DNA of 64,000 bases, from the NCBI GenBank assembly GCA_020635205.1, contig JACKAE010000001.1, forward strand, positions 22,059 to 86,058, given 5' to 3'. The notes below the pieces were generated by a model. The model saw only the letters and a program-made list of their open reading frames with translations. It had not been told where the DNA came from and searched no databases. Both the position numbers and the translations under genes were made by a program. This stretch comes from Ignavibacteria bacterium. Its GTDB lineage: Bacteria; Bacteroidota; Ignavibacteria; OLB7. Shown here piece by piece: positions 13,501 through 60,077 of this stretch. Position 1 is the stretch's first letter, and every line of letters starts with the position of its first letter.

Positions 13501-13976
13501 TTTCAGTCCCATTCGCTCTTATCGGCGGTGTTTGGTTGATTTCTCTCCTCGGCTACAATCTCTCAATAGCCGTCTGGGTTGGGTTCATCGCTCTCTACGG
13601 AGTTGCAGTGCAGACCGGTGTTGTGATGGTGGTCTACCTTCACCACGCACTCGATAAACGGCTTGCCGAACGCGGTGAAGGTTCATCGATTACGCTGCAC
13701 GACATCCACGAGGCAACGGTTGAGGGGGCGCTCGGTCGTCTCCGGCCAAAATTGATGACCGTTGCCACGTCGATGATTGGACTTGTGCCGATTATGTTCG
13801 CCACCGGTGTGGGGAGCGATGTGATGAAGCCGCTCGTTGCTCCGATGATTGGCGGACTCCTCACTTCTGCAGTTCACGTCCTAATCATGACACCTATTCT
13901 CTTCATCATTATGAAAGAACGGGCACTGAAGAGAGGGAGCTTGAGGAAGAGTGAGATGGCGGAGTGGATGGCGTAG
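10536..13976 (+). CDS. cusA: Heavy-metal efflux RND transporter, CusA/CzcA family, 1146 aa. Carries a low-complexity insertion.
   Basis: Canonical HME-RND start 'MIERIIDWSAHNRLLVGLLFLLLAG'. Twelve-TM architecture with conserved CusA-like blocks throughout. About 100 aa longer than typical because of a Ser/Gly/Met-rich segment ('SSGMGEMSSGMGSGEK...GEMTTMGSS'). Confidence 0.85.
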   Translation: MIERIIDWSAHNRLLVGLLFLLLAGAGVWAVVTTPVDAIPDLSDNQVIVFTEWMGRSPQIVEDQVTYPLTTALQGLPEVKGVRAQTMFGMSFIFVIFEDGVDLYFARQQVAERITTAQTDLPSGVIPTMGPDGTGVGHIYWYTVEGEGYDLATLRSLQDWFIRYKLSSVDGVAEVASIGGFVKQYQVDVDPERLRSYGLTFSDVVRAIRSANNEVGGKLIENNDAEFFVRGQGYFESREDIEGTLVNAKSGGLPITIGMVADVQLGGDIRRGSLEKDGKGEVVGGIVVMRQNENAREVIERVKEKIAEIEIGLPKGVRIVPSYDRSPLIDKAIATLRNALVEEALIVTLIVLLFIFHVRSALRILIEIPISVLLAFLLMRAFDITSNIMSLGGIALAIGVVVDSSIVLVENAYRNIAEAQERKRREREEGASDSPDAESSEEISLTKEDYFNLAVLSAKQVGRAIFFSEAIMVISFLPVFLLEGQEGKLFHPLAWTKTFVIGSSAIVAITLVPMLMTLLMKGKFRTERENPVMRFFHALYRPILNWVLKWRKTTIAINLLALLVTIPLLTSRGTEFMPPLDEGSLLFMPVLLPNASVGEVTRVMGAQDKIIADYPEVEHVLGKVGRAETATDNAPVAMIETIILLKPESEWRPGITKGKIIADLDAQLQIPGVRNGWTQPIINRINMLATGVRTDIGLKIFGPDLDTLEHYGIMAEEILKKVPGAADVVADRVQGGVFLDIDLNEESAARYGVSVQDVQTLIETAIGGENIGVVLDGRARYPIRARYQRELRDNLESIKKILVPVSGTVGSSAITSSGMGEMSSGMGSGEKRVSSARGEMTTMGSSNALRRKEVSSTPGVSLSGLTSRYDLSGSTGGNLRGYVELGEIAKIDLRPGPSMIPSENGELKSTVFLNVRGRDMGSFVAEAKERLQGELVLPRGYTYSWSGQYENQTRAENRLLLVIPVVFLVIFLTLYLTLKDWKEASVVMLSVPFALIGGVWLISLLGYNLSIAVWVGFIALYGVAVQTGVVMVVYLHHALDKRLAERGEGSSITLHDIHEATVEGALGRLRPKLMTVATSMIGLVPIMFATGVGSDVMKPLVAPMIGGLLTSAVHVLIMTPILFIIMKERALKRGSLRKSEMAEWMA

Positions 13977-14396
13977 GGGAATTCAAAATTCAAAAGTAAA
14001 AATTCAAAAAAGTAGGTTGCATAGATTTCTTATAGAACCTTCAGGTCGGATGTGATAGGAACTTTCGTTAACCCCCGGACTTTTAGTCCGGGGGGATCGG
14101 TATCCTCGGTTCTGACTCCCCTCTCCCACTCTGGGAATAGGGTAGGGGGAATTCAAAATTCAAAAGTAAAAATTCAAAAAAGTAGGTTGCATAGATTTCT
14201 TATAGAACCTTTAGGTCGGATGTGATAGGCACTTTCGTTAACCCCCGACTTTTGGTCGGGGGGGATCGGTATCCTCGGTTCTGACTCCCCTCTCCCACTC
14301 TGGGAATAGGGTAGGGGGAATTCAAAATTCAAAAGTAAAAATTCAAAAAAGTGGGTTGCACAGATTTCTTAATCAATTAAATCTTGAGAGATACTA
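13976..14396. repeat. Tandem direct repeat, about 2.3 copies of a ~170-180 bp unit. Each unit has an A-rich 'GAATTCAAAATTCAAAAGTAAAAATTCAAAA' block plus a G/C hairpin 'CCCCCGGACTTTTAGTCCGGGGG'.
   Basis: Near-identical units start at ~13976, ~14146 and ~14324 (third copy partial). Only a few substitutions or indels separate the copies. Confidence 0.85.
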
Positions 14397-54406: not shown

Positions 54407-55342
54407 TCAACGAAGAAAGATCAAGCGTTGAGATTTTTTCCGGCCACGGTTTGTGGAGAAGGTGGCCACGGTTTGGAAAAACGGCTGAAATTGGGGGAAA
54501 ACGGGAGGATTATTCGATGGTGGGGGTGTGGTGGGGCATGGTGTGCGGTAGGGACATGGCACGCCATGCCATCCATTATTATCTTCTTCCATCCCATTCT
54601 CCCGATCCAATTCCCAACGCATCGGATTTGCTTGGATATATTTGCGGATACGTTGCAGATCGTCCGTATCTCTGATAATATGATCGTAAAAGCGTGATTG
54701 CCAGATTGACCCTATCTCTGGGAAACAAATTTTAGCCTGACGTGACACTGCGGACTTGAATGCGCCGATAATTGACGAGAGGGAGCGAGCAACTGGCTTG
54801 CCGAAGTAGCGGACGTAGAGTGGGTCTATGATAATCGGGTTGATTGCCATACCTGATGGCAGAACTGTTTGGGGCTTGGAATCTCTCCAATTCACGAGAA
54901 AAGATTTGAGTCCTGTGGTCTCGTTCGCGGTCTCTTCTGGAGTAAGAGGGTTATGTAGGTGGTTCGTGTTGTTATTAGGGGAGAGATTATTCGGCGGACT
55001 GCTTCTTCCGTTCGGTGCTAACAGAATTCACACAATCAGGTGTATATGATTGGGCATAATCACATACTCATCTAACACTACTTCTGAACGTTTGTTCTCT
55101 GTTTCTTTCCACGCGTGGTTGGCAATCCTACCAACTTCGCTCAGGTGCATTTCTCCGGCATGAATTTCTCCAAACAATTCCCGGCGATTGAACGTGCAAA
55201 TGGTGACATAATATGGATTGGGCAAAGCATAGTTGTAGCCTCGCAGACGATAGGAGCGGCGATGGTATGATGGCATAGAAGGTGATGAACAAATTATTGG
55301 GATAATGAGGAAGATGGAATATACGGCGTAGGGACATGGCAC
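54407..55342 (-). mobile_element. REP-associated tyrosine transposase (RAYT/IS200-like Y1 transposase), interrupted by an in-frame stop codon. Likely a pseudogene.
   Basis: N-part 55028..55342 carries the HUH motif 'VIMPNHIHLIV'. C-part 54407..54895, in the same frame, carries 'SLSSIIGAFKSAVSRQ...IWQSRFYDHIIRDTDDLQRIRKYIQANP' with the catalytic Tyr. The two are separated by TGA at 55028-55030 and ~80 extra codons. Confidence 0.65.
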
Positions 55343-55761: not shown

Positions 55762-56685
55762 ATGCTTCGATTTAAAGCTGACTACAGAACGATCGCCTAC
55801 ATGGTCGCTACCACCGGATTGCTGATAGCCCAGTGGGTTATTGGTTACGTCCACCCGGTTCTCTTCCCTCTCTCCCTGTTTATGGCTGTTGCCGTTGCAG
55901 TGATTGCCCACAACCACAATCACCTCCCGACGTGGAAAAACCGGACGCTGAATACTTTGACAGATTACTGGTTGACTCTCTTCTATGGATTCCCTGCCTT
56001 TGCTTGGAAGCCAACACACAACCTGAACCATCACGTTCTCAATAACCGTGAGGGAGACTATACGATCACGTGGCGAGTTACTGAGGGGAATCACTTCTTC
56101 TCGTTAATGAGCTATCCTTCAATCAGCAGTTTCTTTCAGCAGACTCCGATTAAAGGATACTTGAAGCACCTGCGCGTGAAGGATAAGCGGAGTTTCTGGC
56201 TGGCAATTGGCCAGTATGCTGCGCTCGCAATTTTTGTTGGCGTTGCGTTGATTGTTGACTGGAAGAAAGCACTCTTCTTTATCATCATTCCGCAGCAGTT
56301 TGCTCTCTTTAGCATTCTTCTCTTCAACTATGTGCAGCACGTTCACGCGAACGAGGAATCGGAGTGGAACCACTCTCGCAACTTTGTTGGGCCGATGTTG
56401 AACCTATTCCTTTTCAACAACGGGTTCCACACAATTCACCACGAACGTGCCGGCATCCACTGGAGCTTGACGCCGAAAGAGCACGCAAAGATCGAACACC
56501 ATATCGACGACTCACTGAAGGAACGGAGCTTCTGGTGGTATATGATTCGGACATATATCCTTAGTCCGGTTGTTCCCTCATTCCGCACGAAGTCGATGCG
56601 GCTGGAGCGGATACGGCAAGAAGAAGAGGCACGGCGAAGAGAGGGAACGAGTCAAGTTGTTAAGGAAGAACAGGTATTGGCGTAA
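55762..56685 (+). CDS. Membrane fatty-acid desaturase family protein (possibly carotenoid ketolase-like).
   Basis: Three His-boxes ('HNHNH', 'HNLNHH', 'FHTIHHERAGIHWS') in a multi-TM protein. Confidence 0.65.
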   Translation: MLRFKADYRTIAYMVATTGLLIAQWVIGYVHPVLFPLSLFMAVAVAVIAHNHNHLPTWKNRTLNTLTDYWLTLFYGFPAFAWKPTHNLNHHVLNNREGDYTITWRVTEGNHFFSLMSYPSISSFFQQTPIKGYLKHLRVKDKRSFWLAIGQYAALAIFVGVALIVDWKKALFFIIIPQQFALFSILLFNYVQHVHANEESEWNHSRNFVGPMLNLFLFNNGFHTIHHERAGIHWSLTPKEHAKIEHHIDDSLKERSFWWYMIRTYILSPVVPSFRTKSMRLERIRQEEEARRREGTSQVVKEEQVLA

Positions 56686-56871
56686 GAGAGTTTTGGAATT
56701 CAAAATTCAAAAGTAAAAATTCAAAATGATTTCGGGATTCGGATTGGGGATTTCGGACTGAGATACATCAGAAAGGTGTCGTACTTGACAACCGGCTCAA
56801 ATTTGATTTTGGAATTCGGATTGCGAATTTCGGATTGAGTGCTTGACACCAGGTTGAAGTCAACATATCTT

Positions 56872-57018
56872 CCCCAATCCCCAATCCCCAATCCCCAATC
56901 CCCAATCCCCAATCCCCAATCCCCAATCCCCAATCCCCAATCCCCAATCCCCAATCCCCAATCCCCAATCCCCAATCCCCAATCCCCAATCCCCAATCCC
57001 CAATCCCCAATCCCCAAT
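56872..57018. repeat. Heptanucleotide simple-sequence repeat (CCCCAAT), about 21 copies, in the 5' region of the PDO-rhodanese gene.
   Basis: Perfect tandem 7-mers from ~56872 to ~57018. They sit downstream of a TTGACA-like hexamer at ~56844 and 127 nt upstream of the ATG at 57145. Confidence 0.9.
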
Positions 57019-57144
57019 CTCAAGATCGTCTGCTCCAATCGGTTACGAGTGTACCGAAAGATCGGCCTGTGTCGTATGTTGGAACGATTGTTTGATGAAC
57101 TCAATATTAATTCAAGAATTCAAGACAGAGGAGAGGATATTCCT

Positions 57145-58611
57145 ATGTACTTCCAACGTATTTATGATGAGAAGCTGGCCCAGGCTGCCTATCTGATTGG
57201 TTGCCAGAAGACGGGGCAAGCGGCGATAATTGATCCGGAGCGAGATGTGGATCGCTATATCCGGATTGCCGAAGAGAATGGTTTCCGCATTACGGTAATT
57301 ACCGAAACACATATCCACGCAGATTTCTTGAGCGGCGCTCGTGAACTTGCCGAGAAGACCGGAGCGACGCTCTACCTCTCCGGCGAGGGGGGAGAAGGGT
57401 GGAAATATAACTGGCTCGACAAGAAGAGCAGTGGTGGCTACTATAACCACGAACTTCTGGAGGATGGGGATAGCTTCAATGTGGGAAACATCGAGTTGAA
57501 GGCTGTTCACACGCCGGGTCATACCCCGGAGCACTTGAGCTTCTTTGTGATCGATCATGGTGGTGGTGCGGATGATCCTATCGGTCTGGCCACCGGTGAC
57601 TTCGTTTTTGTAGGGGATGTTGGTCGTCCTGACCTGCTGGAGACCGCAGCCGGTGAAGAGGGAGCAAAGGAGCCTGCTGCCCACGAACTTTACGACTCAC
57701 TTCGCTGGTTCGACAAGCTGGACGATTATATACAAATCTGGCCGGGACATGGTGCTGGCTCGGCCTGTGGCAAAGCGCTTGGGGCAATTCCGATGACCAC
57801 AGTTGGCTATGAAAAGCGCTTCAACAGTGCGTTGACCAAAACGCGGGATGGCGACGAGAAGTTTGTCAACTTTATCTTGGAAGGGCAGCCTGATCCTCCC
57901 TATTACTTCGCTCGCATGAAGCGGGAGAATCGAGAAGGTCCAGAACTTCTGGGTGAACTTCCGAAGCCTGAACTTGCTCCCCCTTCTGAAGTTGCCGGGA
58001 AAGTGAAATCTGGTGATGCAGTTCTACTCGACACTCGTTCTTGGAATGATTTTCGTCGAGGCCACATGCAAGGATCGTACTACACACCGTTCGACAAGAC
58101 CTTCCCAACGATTGCTGGTTCTTATACTGACCCAGAACAAGATGTCTATATGGTGATTGGTCACGCAGATGTTGAGGAAGCTGTGCGCGATCTGGTTCGC
58201 GTCGGTATAGATCGCATTAAAGGATATATCATTCCTGAGGCGCTCGATCAGTATCTGAACGATGGCGGAGCAAAAAGGGAGATTGTTTCGACAACTACCG
58301 AAGGGCTGGCTGCCACATTGCGGGAGAAAGATGTGACTGTTCTCGATGTGCGGGGTGAATCTGAATATCGTGAAGGACATGTGCGAGGAGCTTTACAGCT
58401 TGCACACACACGCCTACCGGCTGGCATAAGCAACTTGCCAGAGGATGCGACACTTTACGTTCACTGCAAAAGTGGTGCTCGCTCCGCGATTGCCTCGGCC
58501 TACTTGCAGGCAAACGGACATAACGTTGTCTACGTGAGTGGAGCGTTCGACGATATGGCGAAGGCGGGAATTCCAATTGCCGCCTCACCACGCGAGGAGA
58601 TGACGGCATAA
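57145..58611 (+). CDS. MBL-fold persulfide dioxygenase fused to rhodanese domains (ETHE1/CstB-like sulfur dioxygenase-sulfurtransferase).
   Basis: MBL motif 'ITETHIHADF' (HxHxDH). C-terminal rhodanese with active-site 'VHCKSGARSAIASAYL'. GGAG ribosome-binding site 8 nt upstream of the ATG. Confidence 0.75.
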   Translation: MYFQRIYDEKLAQAAYLIGCQKTGQAAIIDPERDVDRYIRIAEENGFRITVITETHIHADFLSGARELAEKTGATLYLSGEGGEGWKYNWLDKKSSGGYYNHELLEDGDSFNVGNIELKAVHTPGHTPEHLSFFVIDHGGGADDPIGLATGDFVFVGDVGRPDLLETAAGEEGAKEPAAHELYDSLRWFDKLDDYIQIWPGHGAGSACGKALGAIPMTTVGYEKRFNSALTKTRDGDEKFVNFILEGQPDPPYYFARMKRENREGPELLGELPKPELAPPSEVAGKVKSGDAVLLDTRSWNDFRRGHMQGSYYTPFDKTFPTIAGSYTDPEQDVYMVIGHADVEEAVRDLVRVGIDRIKGYIIPEALDQYLNDGGAKREIVSTTTEGLAATLREKDVTVLDVRGESEYREGHVRGALQLAHTRLPAGISNLPEDATLYVHCKSGARSAIASAYLQANGHNVVYVSGAFDDMAKAGIPIAASPREEMTA

Positions 58612-59309: not shown

Positions 59310-59396
59310 GAAAGCATGCTGAATATCGCTTGCATATAGTTTCCATGAGCAGACTTTCCTGTGCTTCTCATACACATTCCCTTCACAATCCCTTTT

Positions 59397-60077
59397 TTAA
59401 TTTTTAATTTTGACTTTTGAATTGATCCTCCCTGTTTTCCGCACAACAGCCGCCACCTCGCCGAGCAGTGCAGTTTCCGGACTTCCATCTACTACTCCCA
59501 CTTTTTGGTAGTGCCGGTTTACAGCCGTAAGATATTTCCGTGGGCCAGCCTGCTCCAGTCTGCGGACAACGGAGCTATTGCCTACCAAAGCGAAAACCAA
59601 CATGCCATCTTCAACTTCTGGCGTTTGCCTTACTACAATCAGATCTCCTTTGAATATCCCCTCCTTATCCATTCCATCGTCGGTAACGATTGCGACGAAG
59701 GCGTTCTCTGTTGGCATAGTTTCTGGATCGGGAGTGAACATGCCACGCGGGTTCATGAAGATAGAGTATGGGTTCGATGAATGTCCGTCGCCAACAATGG
59801 GAAGCTGTTTTGCAGAAGACCCTGACGTTAGGGGAGAGATGAGACTCGGGTCAACTAAGGCGATTCCCCGAGCCTTCCCCTTGTGCCTGATGATATATCC
59901 CTTTACCTCCAGAGCATTCAGGTGTTCGAAGACGCCGTTCGTGGAGCGCAGCTTGAATTCCTTAGCAATTTCTGGAATTGTCGGTGGTGCTTGCTCCTCC
60001 TCAATGCGGGAGCGGATGAACTCGTATATTTCGTTTTGACGTGGCGTTAAGGAACCACGTCCTGAGCGGGAAGCCAT
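59397..60077 (-). CDS. lexA: LexA-like repressor (S24-fold) with substituted cleavage site and catalytic dyad. Predicted non-autocleavable.
   Basis: N-terminal wHTH 'LTPRQNEIYEFIRSRIEEEQAPPTIPEIAKEFKLRSTNGVFEHLNALEVKGYIIRHKGKARGIAL' closely resembles the E. coli LexA DNA-binding domain. C-terminal 'VTDDGMDKEGIFKGDLIVV' aligns to 'VSGMSMKDIGIMDGDLLAV' with Ser119 replaced by Gly. 'VVRRLEQAG' aligns to 'VKRLKKQG' with Lys156 replaced by Arg. The Ala-Gly cleavage site is replaced by 'HSS'. Confidence 0.7.
   Translation of the reverse strand: MASRSGRGSLTPRQNEIYEFIRSRIEEEQAPPTIPEIAKEFKLRSTNGVFEHLNALEVKGYIIRHKGKARGIALVDPSLISPLTSGSSAKQLPIVGDGHSSNPYSIFMNPRGMFTPDPETMPTENAFVAIVTDDGMDKEGIFKGDLIVVRQTPEVEDGMLVFALVGNSSVVRRLEQAGPRKYLTAVNRHYQKVGVVDGSPETALLGEVAAVVRKTGRINSKVKIKN

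Follow-up and report, generated by a model that had tools for sequence, protein, structure and literature searches.

A long CCCCAAT array of apparently variable length upstream of a persulfide dioxygenase-rhodanese gene in Ignavibacteriota, assigned by sequence to the GGGGATT heptamer class

The window analysed here is a stretch of 64,000 nucleotides (nt) from an Ignavibacteria bacterium (contig JACKAE010000001.1 of assembly GCA_020635205.1, hereafter H6616). Between a fatty-acid desaturase gene and the gene for a persulfide dioxygenase-rhodanese fusion (PDO), it contains a perfect tandem array of 21 CCCCAAT heptamers. Judged by its sequence, this array is an unusually long member of the GGGGATT (= CCCCAAT) class of repeats, in a phylum new to that class. 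Repeats of this class are capable of forming G-quadruplexes (G4) and i-motifs. We consider it probable that the array is the C-rich half, now expanded, of an inverted pair of intergenic heptamer tracts, that slippage changes its length and that it forms a structural barrier. Its most likely role would be structural: a spacer or barrier, prone to slippage, that separates the two co-directional genes. From the desaturase stop codon onwards, the locus comprises a short element that we call the AT box, a G-rich arm, a TTGACA hexamer, a duplicated G-rich arm, the promoter-like site TTGACA-N17-TATCTT, the C-rich array, a conserved block and the PDO gene (Table 1).

Table 1. Features of the desaturase-PDO region, in positions of the window
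Feature	Position	Strand	Description and basis
Fatty-acid desaturase, upstream gene	55762..56685	+	Pfam FA_desaturase (9.5e-24); stop 11 nt before AT box
AT box	56697..56726	+	30 nt, AATTCAAAATTCAAAAGTAAAAATTCAAAA; decayed AATTCAA heptamer tract; repeat search
G-rich arm 1	56727..56762	+	Decayed TTGGGGA-type heptamers, inverse complement of array unit; complementarity
G-rich arm 2	56804..56839	+	Duplicate of arm 1, more decayed; pattern match, 1 mismatch
Promoter-like site TTGACA-N17-TATCTT	56843..56871	+	TATCTT at 56866-56871; 10/12 consensus matches
(CCCCAAT)21 array	56871..57019	+	C-rich strand is the sense strand for both flanking genes
Conserved non-coding block	57034..57080	+	TCCAATCGGTTACGAG (57034-57049), then TGTnnTATGTT (TATGTT 57075-57080); alignment with array-free relatives
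Ribosome-binding site GGAGAGG	57130..57136	+	8 nt before ATG; read from sequence, plausible
CstB-like persulfide dioxygenase (metallo-beta-lactamase fold)-rhodanese fusion (PDO), 488 aa	57145..58611	+	Pfam Lactamase_B and Rhodanese

The initial annotation of this DNA had counted about 21 perfect heptamers, and this was confirmed with Tandem Repeats Finder (period 7, 21.3 copies, 100% matches, score 298) and by a 14-mer search allowing up to 2 mismatches. The latter returned 22 matches, as compared with 0.53 expected from shuffles; 20 were exact and all of these lay in the array, one fell in the decayed upstream arm and one elsewhere. The minus (template) strand of the array reads (GGGGATT)21, with 21 GGGG tracts. 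As annotated, a promoter-like site precedes the repeat and the PDO gene follows it: the array starts 22 nt past TTGACA, the promoter-like site running up to its first unit, and ends upstream of the ATG at 57145, though at a distance of 125 nt rather than the 127 nt first given. Desaturase flanks or PDO flanks that end or begin in the array were also present in independent assemblies (loci L001-L004, L006, L007, L011, L012 and L135), indicating that the array is not an artefact of a single assembly. The short-read assemblies all break at it, their PDO contigs beginning in the array and their desaturase contigs finishing in it.

We take the GGGGA(C/T)T heptamers of Nostoc to be the short tandemly repeated repetitive (STRR) heptamers of cyanobacteria; the unit of one of these, STRR1, was reportedly given as CCCCA(A/G)T by Mazel et al. 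in 1990. Nostoc PCC 7120 contains 89 GGGGA(C/T)T repeats, mostly intergenic, in which the longest perfect GGGGATT run has 26 units (Rehm et al. 2015, PMC4692102). Where these repeats follow a stop codon, the G-rich tract tends to be on the sense strand, and where they precede a start codon, on the antisense strand, at a modal distance of at most 50 bp, and oligonucleotides with the sequences (GGGGATT)4 and (AATCCCC)4 form a G4 and an i-motif, respectively, in vitro (PMC4692102). The present locus has the GGGGATT unit in tandem, and dispersed arrays of this unit occur at two sites of its genome and at a third in a related one. Its first G-rich arm is in the sense orientation, 42 nt past the desaturase stop codon, while in the array, 125 nt from the PDO start, it is the antisense strand that is rich in G. 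With a G arm after a stop codon and a C array before a start codon, the locus unites both of the placements preferred by the Nostoc repeats. It thus resembles these in the identity of the unit, the mostly intergenic location, the strand placement and the variable length. It differs from them in that the host is an uncultured member of the Ignavibacteriota (Candidatus Kapaibacterium), that 2-3 loci have been seen so far as against 89, and that the arrays are far longer than the usual 4-5 units and each stand behind a module made of an AT box, a decayed G arm and TTGACA.

To place the array in a wider context, genomes (one per species) were scanned for (CCCCAAT)4, yielding at least 120 stretches. 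The matches listed came mostly from Nostocales and other cyanobacteria, and also from Planctomycetota, Chloroflexota, Xanthomonas/Stenotrophomonas, Bacteroidota and Acidobacteriota. In arrays sampled from these other genomes (loci L015-L134; for instance L029, 3400-3700 on the minus strand, L059, L016 and L077), a strong complementary tract within 300 nt of the array was found on the 5' side in 46 of 98 cases and on the 3' side in 1 of 98. Exact G units near the array were likewise confined to the 5' side (16 versus 0 of 127 sampled arrays). The sequences therefore suggest that G arm followed by C arm is the fixed polarity of such pairs, on either strand and across phyla. In Stenotrophomonas (L029), a stop codon, a G arm, a spacer, a long C array and an ATG follow one another in the same order as in the window. 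Under the ordinary reading that we favour, the locus extends the GGGGATT heptamer class to the Ignavibacteriota, and different phyla share the typical succession of stop codon, G arm, C arm and start codon.

Two other families of heptamers offer a comparison. The GGGAATC repeats of Xanthomonas are also G4-capable heptamers located between co-directional open reading frames (ORFs), show extensive length variation among close relatives and include paired G and C tracts able to form stem-loops (PMC4692102); their unit differs from the present one by rotation and one base, and at the desaturase-PDO locus perfect units in a long run are confined to the C arm, the G arm having decayed. TAACTGA heptamers, which have a patchy spread in Beggiatoaceae, Cyanobacteria and Bacteroidetes, lie just upstream of the starts of unrelated genes, and some Bacteroidetes and Cyanobacteria have arrays of as many as 43 copies (PMC4679880). 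They share with our array that they are dispersed heptamers preceding unrelated genes. Unlike it, they have no G4 potential and usually lie within a few nt of the start, where a translational role has been proposed, whereas 125 nt separate our array from the ATG. As a minor point, the unit can change within one tract, (CCCGAAT)12 passing to (CCCCAAT)9 in a Stenotrophomonas array.

The upstream side of the locus supplied the other half of the proposed pair. The initial annotation had noticed degenerate half-repeats there; these are indeed present, at 56735-56762 and 56812-56839, and correspond to a decayed, G-rich inverted arm of the array repeat. Arm 1 is complementary to every register of the array over 33 nt (73%), and its predicted RNA duplex with (CCCCAAU)8, at -35.4 kcal/mol, beats those of all of the approximately 3000 control 36-mers from the window. 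Arm 2 reaches -20.9 kcal/mol, which places it among the best 1.7% of the controls. A TTGACA hexamer stands after each of the two arms (56786-56791 and 56843-56848). The second hexamer belongs to the promoter-like site, whose match is not significant taken alone, a promoter scan of the region giving 2 sites as compared with 1.2 +/- 1.2 in shuffles.

The initial annotation proposed that the array is a contingency switch, in which a change of unit number alters the spacing between promoter and start or, if the repeat is translated, the reading frame. We therefore considered first whether the repeat might be translated. An in-frame extension from GTG 56839, reading (QSPIPNP)n through the array, does exist and gives a 590-aa frame. 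Since none of the six frames of the array contains a stop codon, such an open frame arises automatically and says nothing about coding. Among the about 120 PDO homologues listed, most have 474-492 aa (at least 94% query coverage) and align from ATG 57145; the PDO start, MYFQR (MFF in relatives with 71-76% identity), aligns with relatives that lack the array. No gene was recorded for the 590-aa product when this was looked up, and with a 16-unit array the frame would be lost. A translated N-terminal extension is accordingly most improbable. The initial annotation had itself preferred ATG 57145, with its good ribosome-binding site, as the true start and had regarded the repeat as more likely untranslated; both views were upheld by the homologue lengths and by the conservation of the start in array-free relatives.

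The same relatives indicated where the PDO gene is likely to be controlled. Two related species, with PDO identities of 80% and 84% to the window, had no heptamer array, and in them orthologues of the desaturase (85% and 90% identical) lie upstream of PDO, directly in L137 and L138 and with a DUF1573 gene intervening in L139; in one of these array-free relatives the desaturase-PDO spacer is 215 nt. The 16-mer TCCAATCGGTTACGAG is invariant in both relatives, and TATGTT lies 25 nt downstream of it. The block to which they belong begins 14 nt past the end of the array, without overlap. In relatives with 71-76% identity, which also lack the array, a different gene lies upstream of PDO, and a comparable conserved block is present that ends in TATCTT. 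As the conserved block falls between the array and the ATG, this comparison suggests that the native control region of PDO lies downstream (3') of the array, with the block as the candidate native operator and -10 element. In turn, the AT box, the arms and the array would be a lineage-specific addition upstream of that region. The desaturase-PDO adjacency appears to be ancestral, and synteny with the relatives favours the arrangement found in the window. A sigma-54 promoter, seen by eye in a TGGAAC-N5-TTTGA stretch, was discarded, its -12 element not being kept in the relatives. A check for a promoter of the Bacteroidota -33/-7 type showed that TATGTTG resembles TAnnTTTG, but that no TTG stands at the proper distance. 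A metagenome collection was scanned for the left flank joined to the array (TTGACA-N14-20-ATCTTYCCCAATCCCCAAT) and, separately, for the conserved block, and neither scan gave a match; the lineage seems to be missing from the scanned collection.

With a conserved start, both hexamers upstream of the array, a conserved block downstream of it and an enzyme gene as the target, the locus does not have the layout of an on/off switch. Thus, of the contingency-switch proposal, the untranslated repeat, its placement between a promoter-like site and the gene and a copy number that differs between two assemblies (see below) stood, but not the classic arrangement. A change in unit number would shift neither the frame nor the promoter geometry, as the array is outside the ORF and does not separate a -35 from a -10 element. 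PDO is a cytoplasmic CstB-like enzyme, not a surface or restriction-modification protein, and a second array in the same genome fronts a flavin-reductase gene. The same unit is moreover dispersed intergenically in many phyla, and in Nostoc, where the GGGGA(C/T)T repeats vary strongly in length and show no tie to gene classes, phase variation was deemed unlikely (PMC4692102). Any effect of the array on PDO would consequently be structural or graded, rather than on/off.

We next considered the possibility that array length tunes PDO expression. According to this explanation, the array would be transcribed from TTGACA-N17-TATCTT as part of a leader of ~266 nt, or be contained in read-through RNA, and the number of units would set PDO expression gradually. 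There is a precedent in Haemophilus influenzae, where the (ATCTTTC)n heptamers of hmw1A and hmw2A are transcribed in the 5'-untranslated region, pair with a G-rich region and lead to RNase III processing, expression dropping with repeat length (PMC12721329). The window has similar ingredients: a heptanucleotide repeat upstream of the gene, a complementary G-rich region whose predicted pairing exceeds that of the controls, a copy number that differs between assemblies, and a promoter-like site that abuts the array and recurs in a paralogous flank. Yet, unlike in hmw, the G-rich arms are 5' of both the array and the candidate promoter, and arms and array could share an RNA only through read-through. 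Furthermore, the hmw genes encode surface adhesins under host selection and the window gene a cytoplasmic enzyme, the conserved control block is downstream of the array, the same module precedes the unrelated flavin-reductase gene, and the repeat class is found across all functional gene classes (PMC4692102). Length-dependent control of this kind, a graded effect of array length on PDO expression as in hmw, thus appears unlikely to us. We regard as even less probable a composite in which the G arm and C array, paired in leader or read-through RNA, form an hmw-type, length-tunable RNA device that sets how much transcription or translation reaches PDO, while array-driven inversion swaps the upstream modules of two redox genes. 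If true, such an RNA device would give the widespread heptamer pairs of the GGGGATT type their first function, and this in a free-living non-pathogen.

The question of inversion arose from the other arrays of the lineage. Long arrays occur at two or more sites of the genome, and their left flanks are paralogous. We designate the flanks as La (desaturase side), Lb (side of a 135-aa ORF), Ra (flavin-reductase gene) and Rb (PDO). In H6616, the junctions, with their numbers of units, are La-21-Rb and Lb-16-Ra; in the assembly GCA_041391565.1, they are La-16-Ra and Lb-18-Rb. The two sets correspond to an exact reciprocal exchange (window 56871-57019; L005, 11110-11225; L136, 9750-9875; protein P0246), the flanks of the two assemblies being 100% and 99.9% identical. 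The spurious minus-strand ORF that crosses the window's array served as a probe and placed the window at the beginning of a 1.28-Mb contig (tag H6616_00280). The second H6616 array, on a 0.66-Mb contig, was recovered through another spurious ORF, H6616_14680 (P0246; MRGIGDWGL...GIGKDVMAF), which is the reverse translation of Ra, then CCCAAT(CCCCAAT)15CCC, then Lb; a look-up of P0246 gave no record, and this Lb-Ra junction was read from the protein sequence only. La and Lb are homologous (about 70% alike) and share the succession AT box, decayed G-rich heptamers, TGAGATACnTCAG, cTTGACA, 16-17 nt, (T/C)ATCTT and array; the duplication of the G-rich arm shows up as a gap in their alignment. In Lb, TTGACA is followed at the same position by 16 nt and CATCTT. 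Ra and Rb are unrelated, with only a 13-nt match at chance level. A third locus, L147, from a related Kapaibacterium metagenome-assembled genome (MAG), has a G-rich arm, a spacer of ~100 nt and (CCCCAAT)12 followed by (CCGAAAT)n up to the contig end, which is again a switch of unit within one tract (L147, 1-110, minus strand). All four G-rich arms of the three Kapaibacterium loci pair with their array better than about 98-100% of controls.

These junctions bear on the copy number, which the initial annotation had proposed to examine for invariance. It does not appear to be invariant: next to La there are 21 units in H6616 and 16 in the near-identical GCA_041391565.1, and next to Lb 16 and 18 units, respectively, these being the only two assemblies that span the arrays, with their right-hand partners swapped. 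The reciprocal joins reflect either a real inversion or a misjoin at a two-in, two-out repeat. Under either arrangement, a module with TTGACA and a long array stand in front of PDO.

In the case of a real inversion, the two long arrays would act as recombination substrates: their recombination would invert the intervening chromosome segment, so that PDO and the flavin-reductase gene would exchange upstream regions among strains or subpopulations. A perfect identity of 112-149 bp, as exists between the arrays, should suffice for homologous recombination. The exchange is exactly reciprocal and the flanks are nearly identical, and the ancestral desaturase-PDO adjacency implies that one of the arrangements is derived. 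In addition, GCA_041391565.1 seems to come from a slightly different strain, since its PDO gene is broken by two 2-bp deletions (58388-58389 and 58403-58404), 15 nt apart in GA/CA dinucleotide micro-repeats, which split it into ORFs of 426 and 69 aa; four other assemblies agree with the window at these sites. On the other hand, two-in, two-out repeats are a typical source of assembler error, every short-read assembly breaks at the array, and the copy totals are unequal (37 versus 34). We therefore see recombination as a possibility worth retaining, though clearly less likely than a structural role of a slipping array. Whatever the cause, such arrays are to be flagged as break or misjoin points for metagenome assemblies. 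If length tunes expression or the arrays invert, the locus would provide a way to test the role of these abundant bacterial repeats, which were first seen in cyanobacteria.

The composition of the transcribed array raised a further possibility. A C-rich RNA devoid of G would be an ideal Rho-utilisation site, and the array might thus act as a Rho-loading site or insulator, ending desaturase transcripts before the PDO control region. The RNA spanning the array is 147 nt long, with 57% C and no G, as read from the sequence, and no intrinsic terminator was found 3' of the desaturase gene. However, the repeat class is commonest in cyanobacteria, which to our knowledge lack Rho, so this could not be its general role. 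Repeats of the class are found preferentially between genes of the same direction, the sense strand ahead of the downstream gene being the C-rich one (PMC4692102), and a crude count in our sample went in the same direction (30 versus 16). On balance, we judge Rho loading improbable.

We return to the reading of the array as the expanded C-rich arm of an inverted heptamer pair. Replication slippage would lengthen and shorten the array, and the array would push upstream sequences further from the control region of PDO itself. Read-through transcription from the desaturase gene would meet a G4-prone template strand, and in the read-through RNA the G-rich arm could form a duplex with the C-rich array in any of several sliding registers. 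In this way, the array might act as a barrier separating the co-directional transcription units, or form a 3'-end structure between them. Several observations do not sit easily with this reading. Unit numbers range from 4 to 10 in the 127 perfect arrays sampled, as compared with 16-21 here, and 21 perfect units is so extreme a number that it could reflect selection for length, not drift. The maintenance of complementarity between G-rich arms and arrays at three loci hints at a function. In both paralogous flanks, TTGACA, 16-17 nt and (T/C)ATCTT abut the array, which could therefore begin a dedicated transcript, as a length-sensitive leader requires. Finally, the predicted RNA fold of the whole region is only modestly better than that of shuffles (z = -2.2), and its centroid has no long-range helix, although the minimum free energy structure of 56686-57040 does contain an arm-array helix.

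Concerning the PDO gene, full-length matches were obtained with the PDB entries 3tp9 (3e-121) and 3r2u (3.5e-106). The latter is, we assume, the CstB of Staphylococcus aureus, which makes persulfide dioxygenase-rhodanese a fair name for the gene. The identical 488-aa protein is annotated by NCBI in MAGs labelled 'Ignavibacteriota' and 'Candidatus Kapaibacterium'. In relatives with 71-76% identity (L142, L143, L145 and L146), genes for a MarR-family regulator and DoxX come after those for PDO and an ICMT-family methyltransferase; in the window, LexA is instead encoded on the opposite strand after the methyltransferase gene.

No Rfam family matched the whole window at gathering thresholds or the region 56600-57250 at E <= 1, and a tRNA/tmRNA scan found none. 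A mobile element of the miniature inverted-repeat transposable element or repetitive extragenic palindromic (REP) type was rejected as the origin of the module: the left flanks are only ~70% alike, the right flanks are unrelated and only the AT box is exactly repeated. No target-site duplication was visible at the borders in the comparison with an array-free relative. An apparently split or degraded gene resembling a REP-associated tyrosine transposase (RAYT) lies 1.4 kb upstream of the repeat region, as two minus-strand ORFs (54407-54895 and 55028-55342) that match the C- and N-terminal halves of the family NF047646 (1e-11 and 3e-5), below its cut-off. A link between this gene and the array was dismissed, in view of these sub-threshold matches and of the lack of any palindromic REP sequences seen.

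The AT box occurs in exact copies at 13980, 14150, 14319 and 56697 of the window, with 0 expected by chance, and is also present in flank Lb. It begins 4-11 nt past two stop codons (window 13976-14371 and 56697-56726). In the former region it heads a 169-bp unit present in 2.3 copies, inside which lies a strong GC hairpin, AACCCCCGGACTTTTAGTCCGGGGGG. A degenerate copy with 3 mismatches, on the minus strand at 59394-59423, codes for the final residues of LexA.

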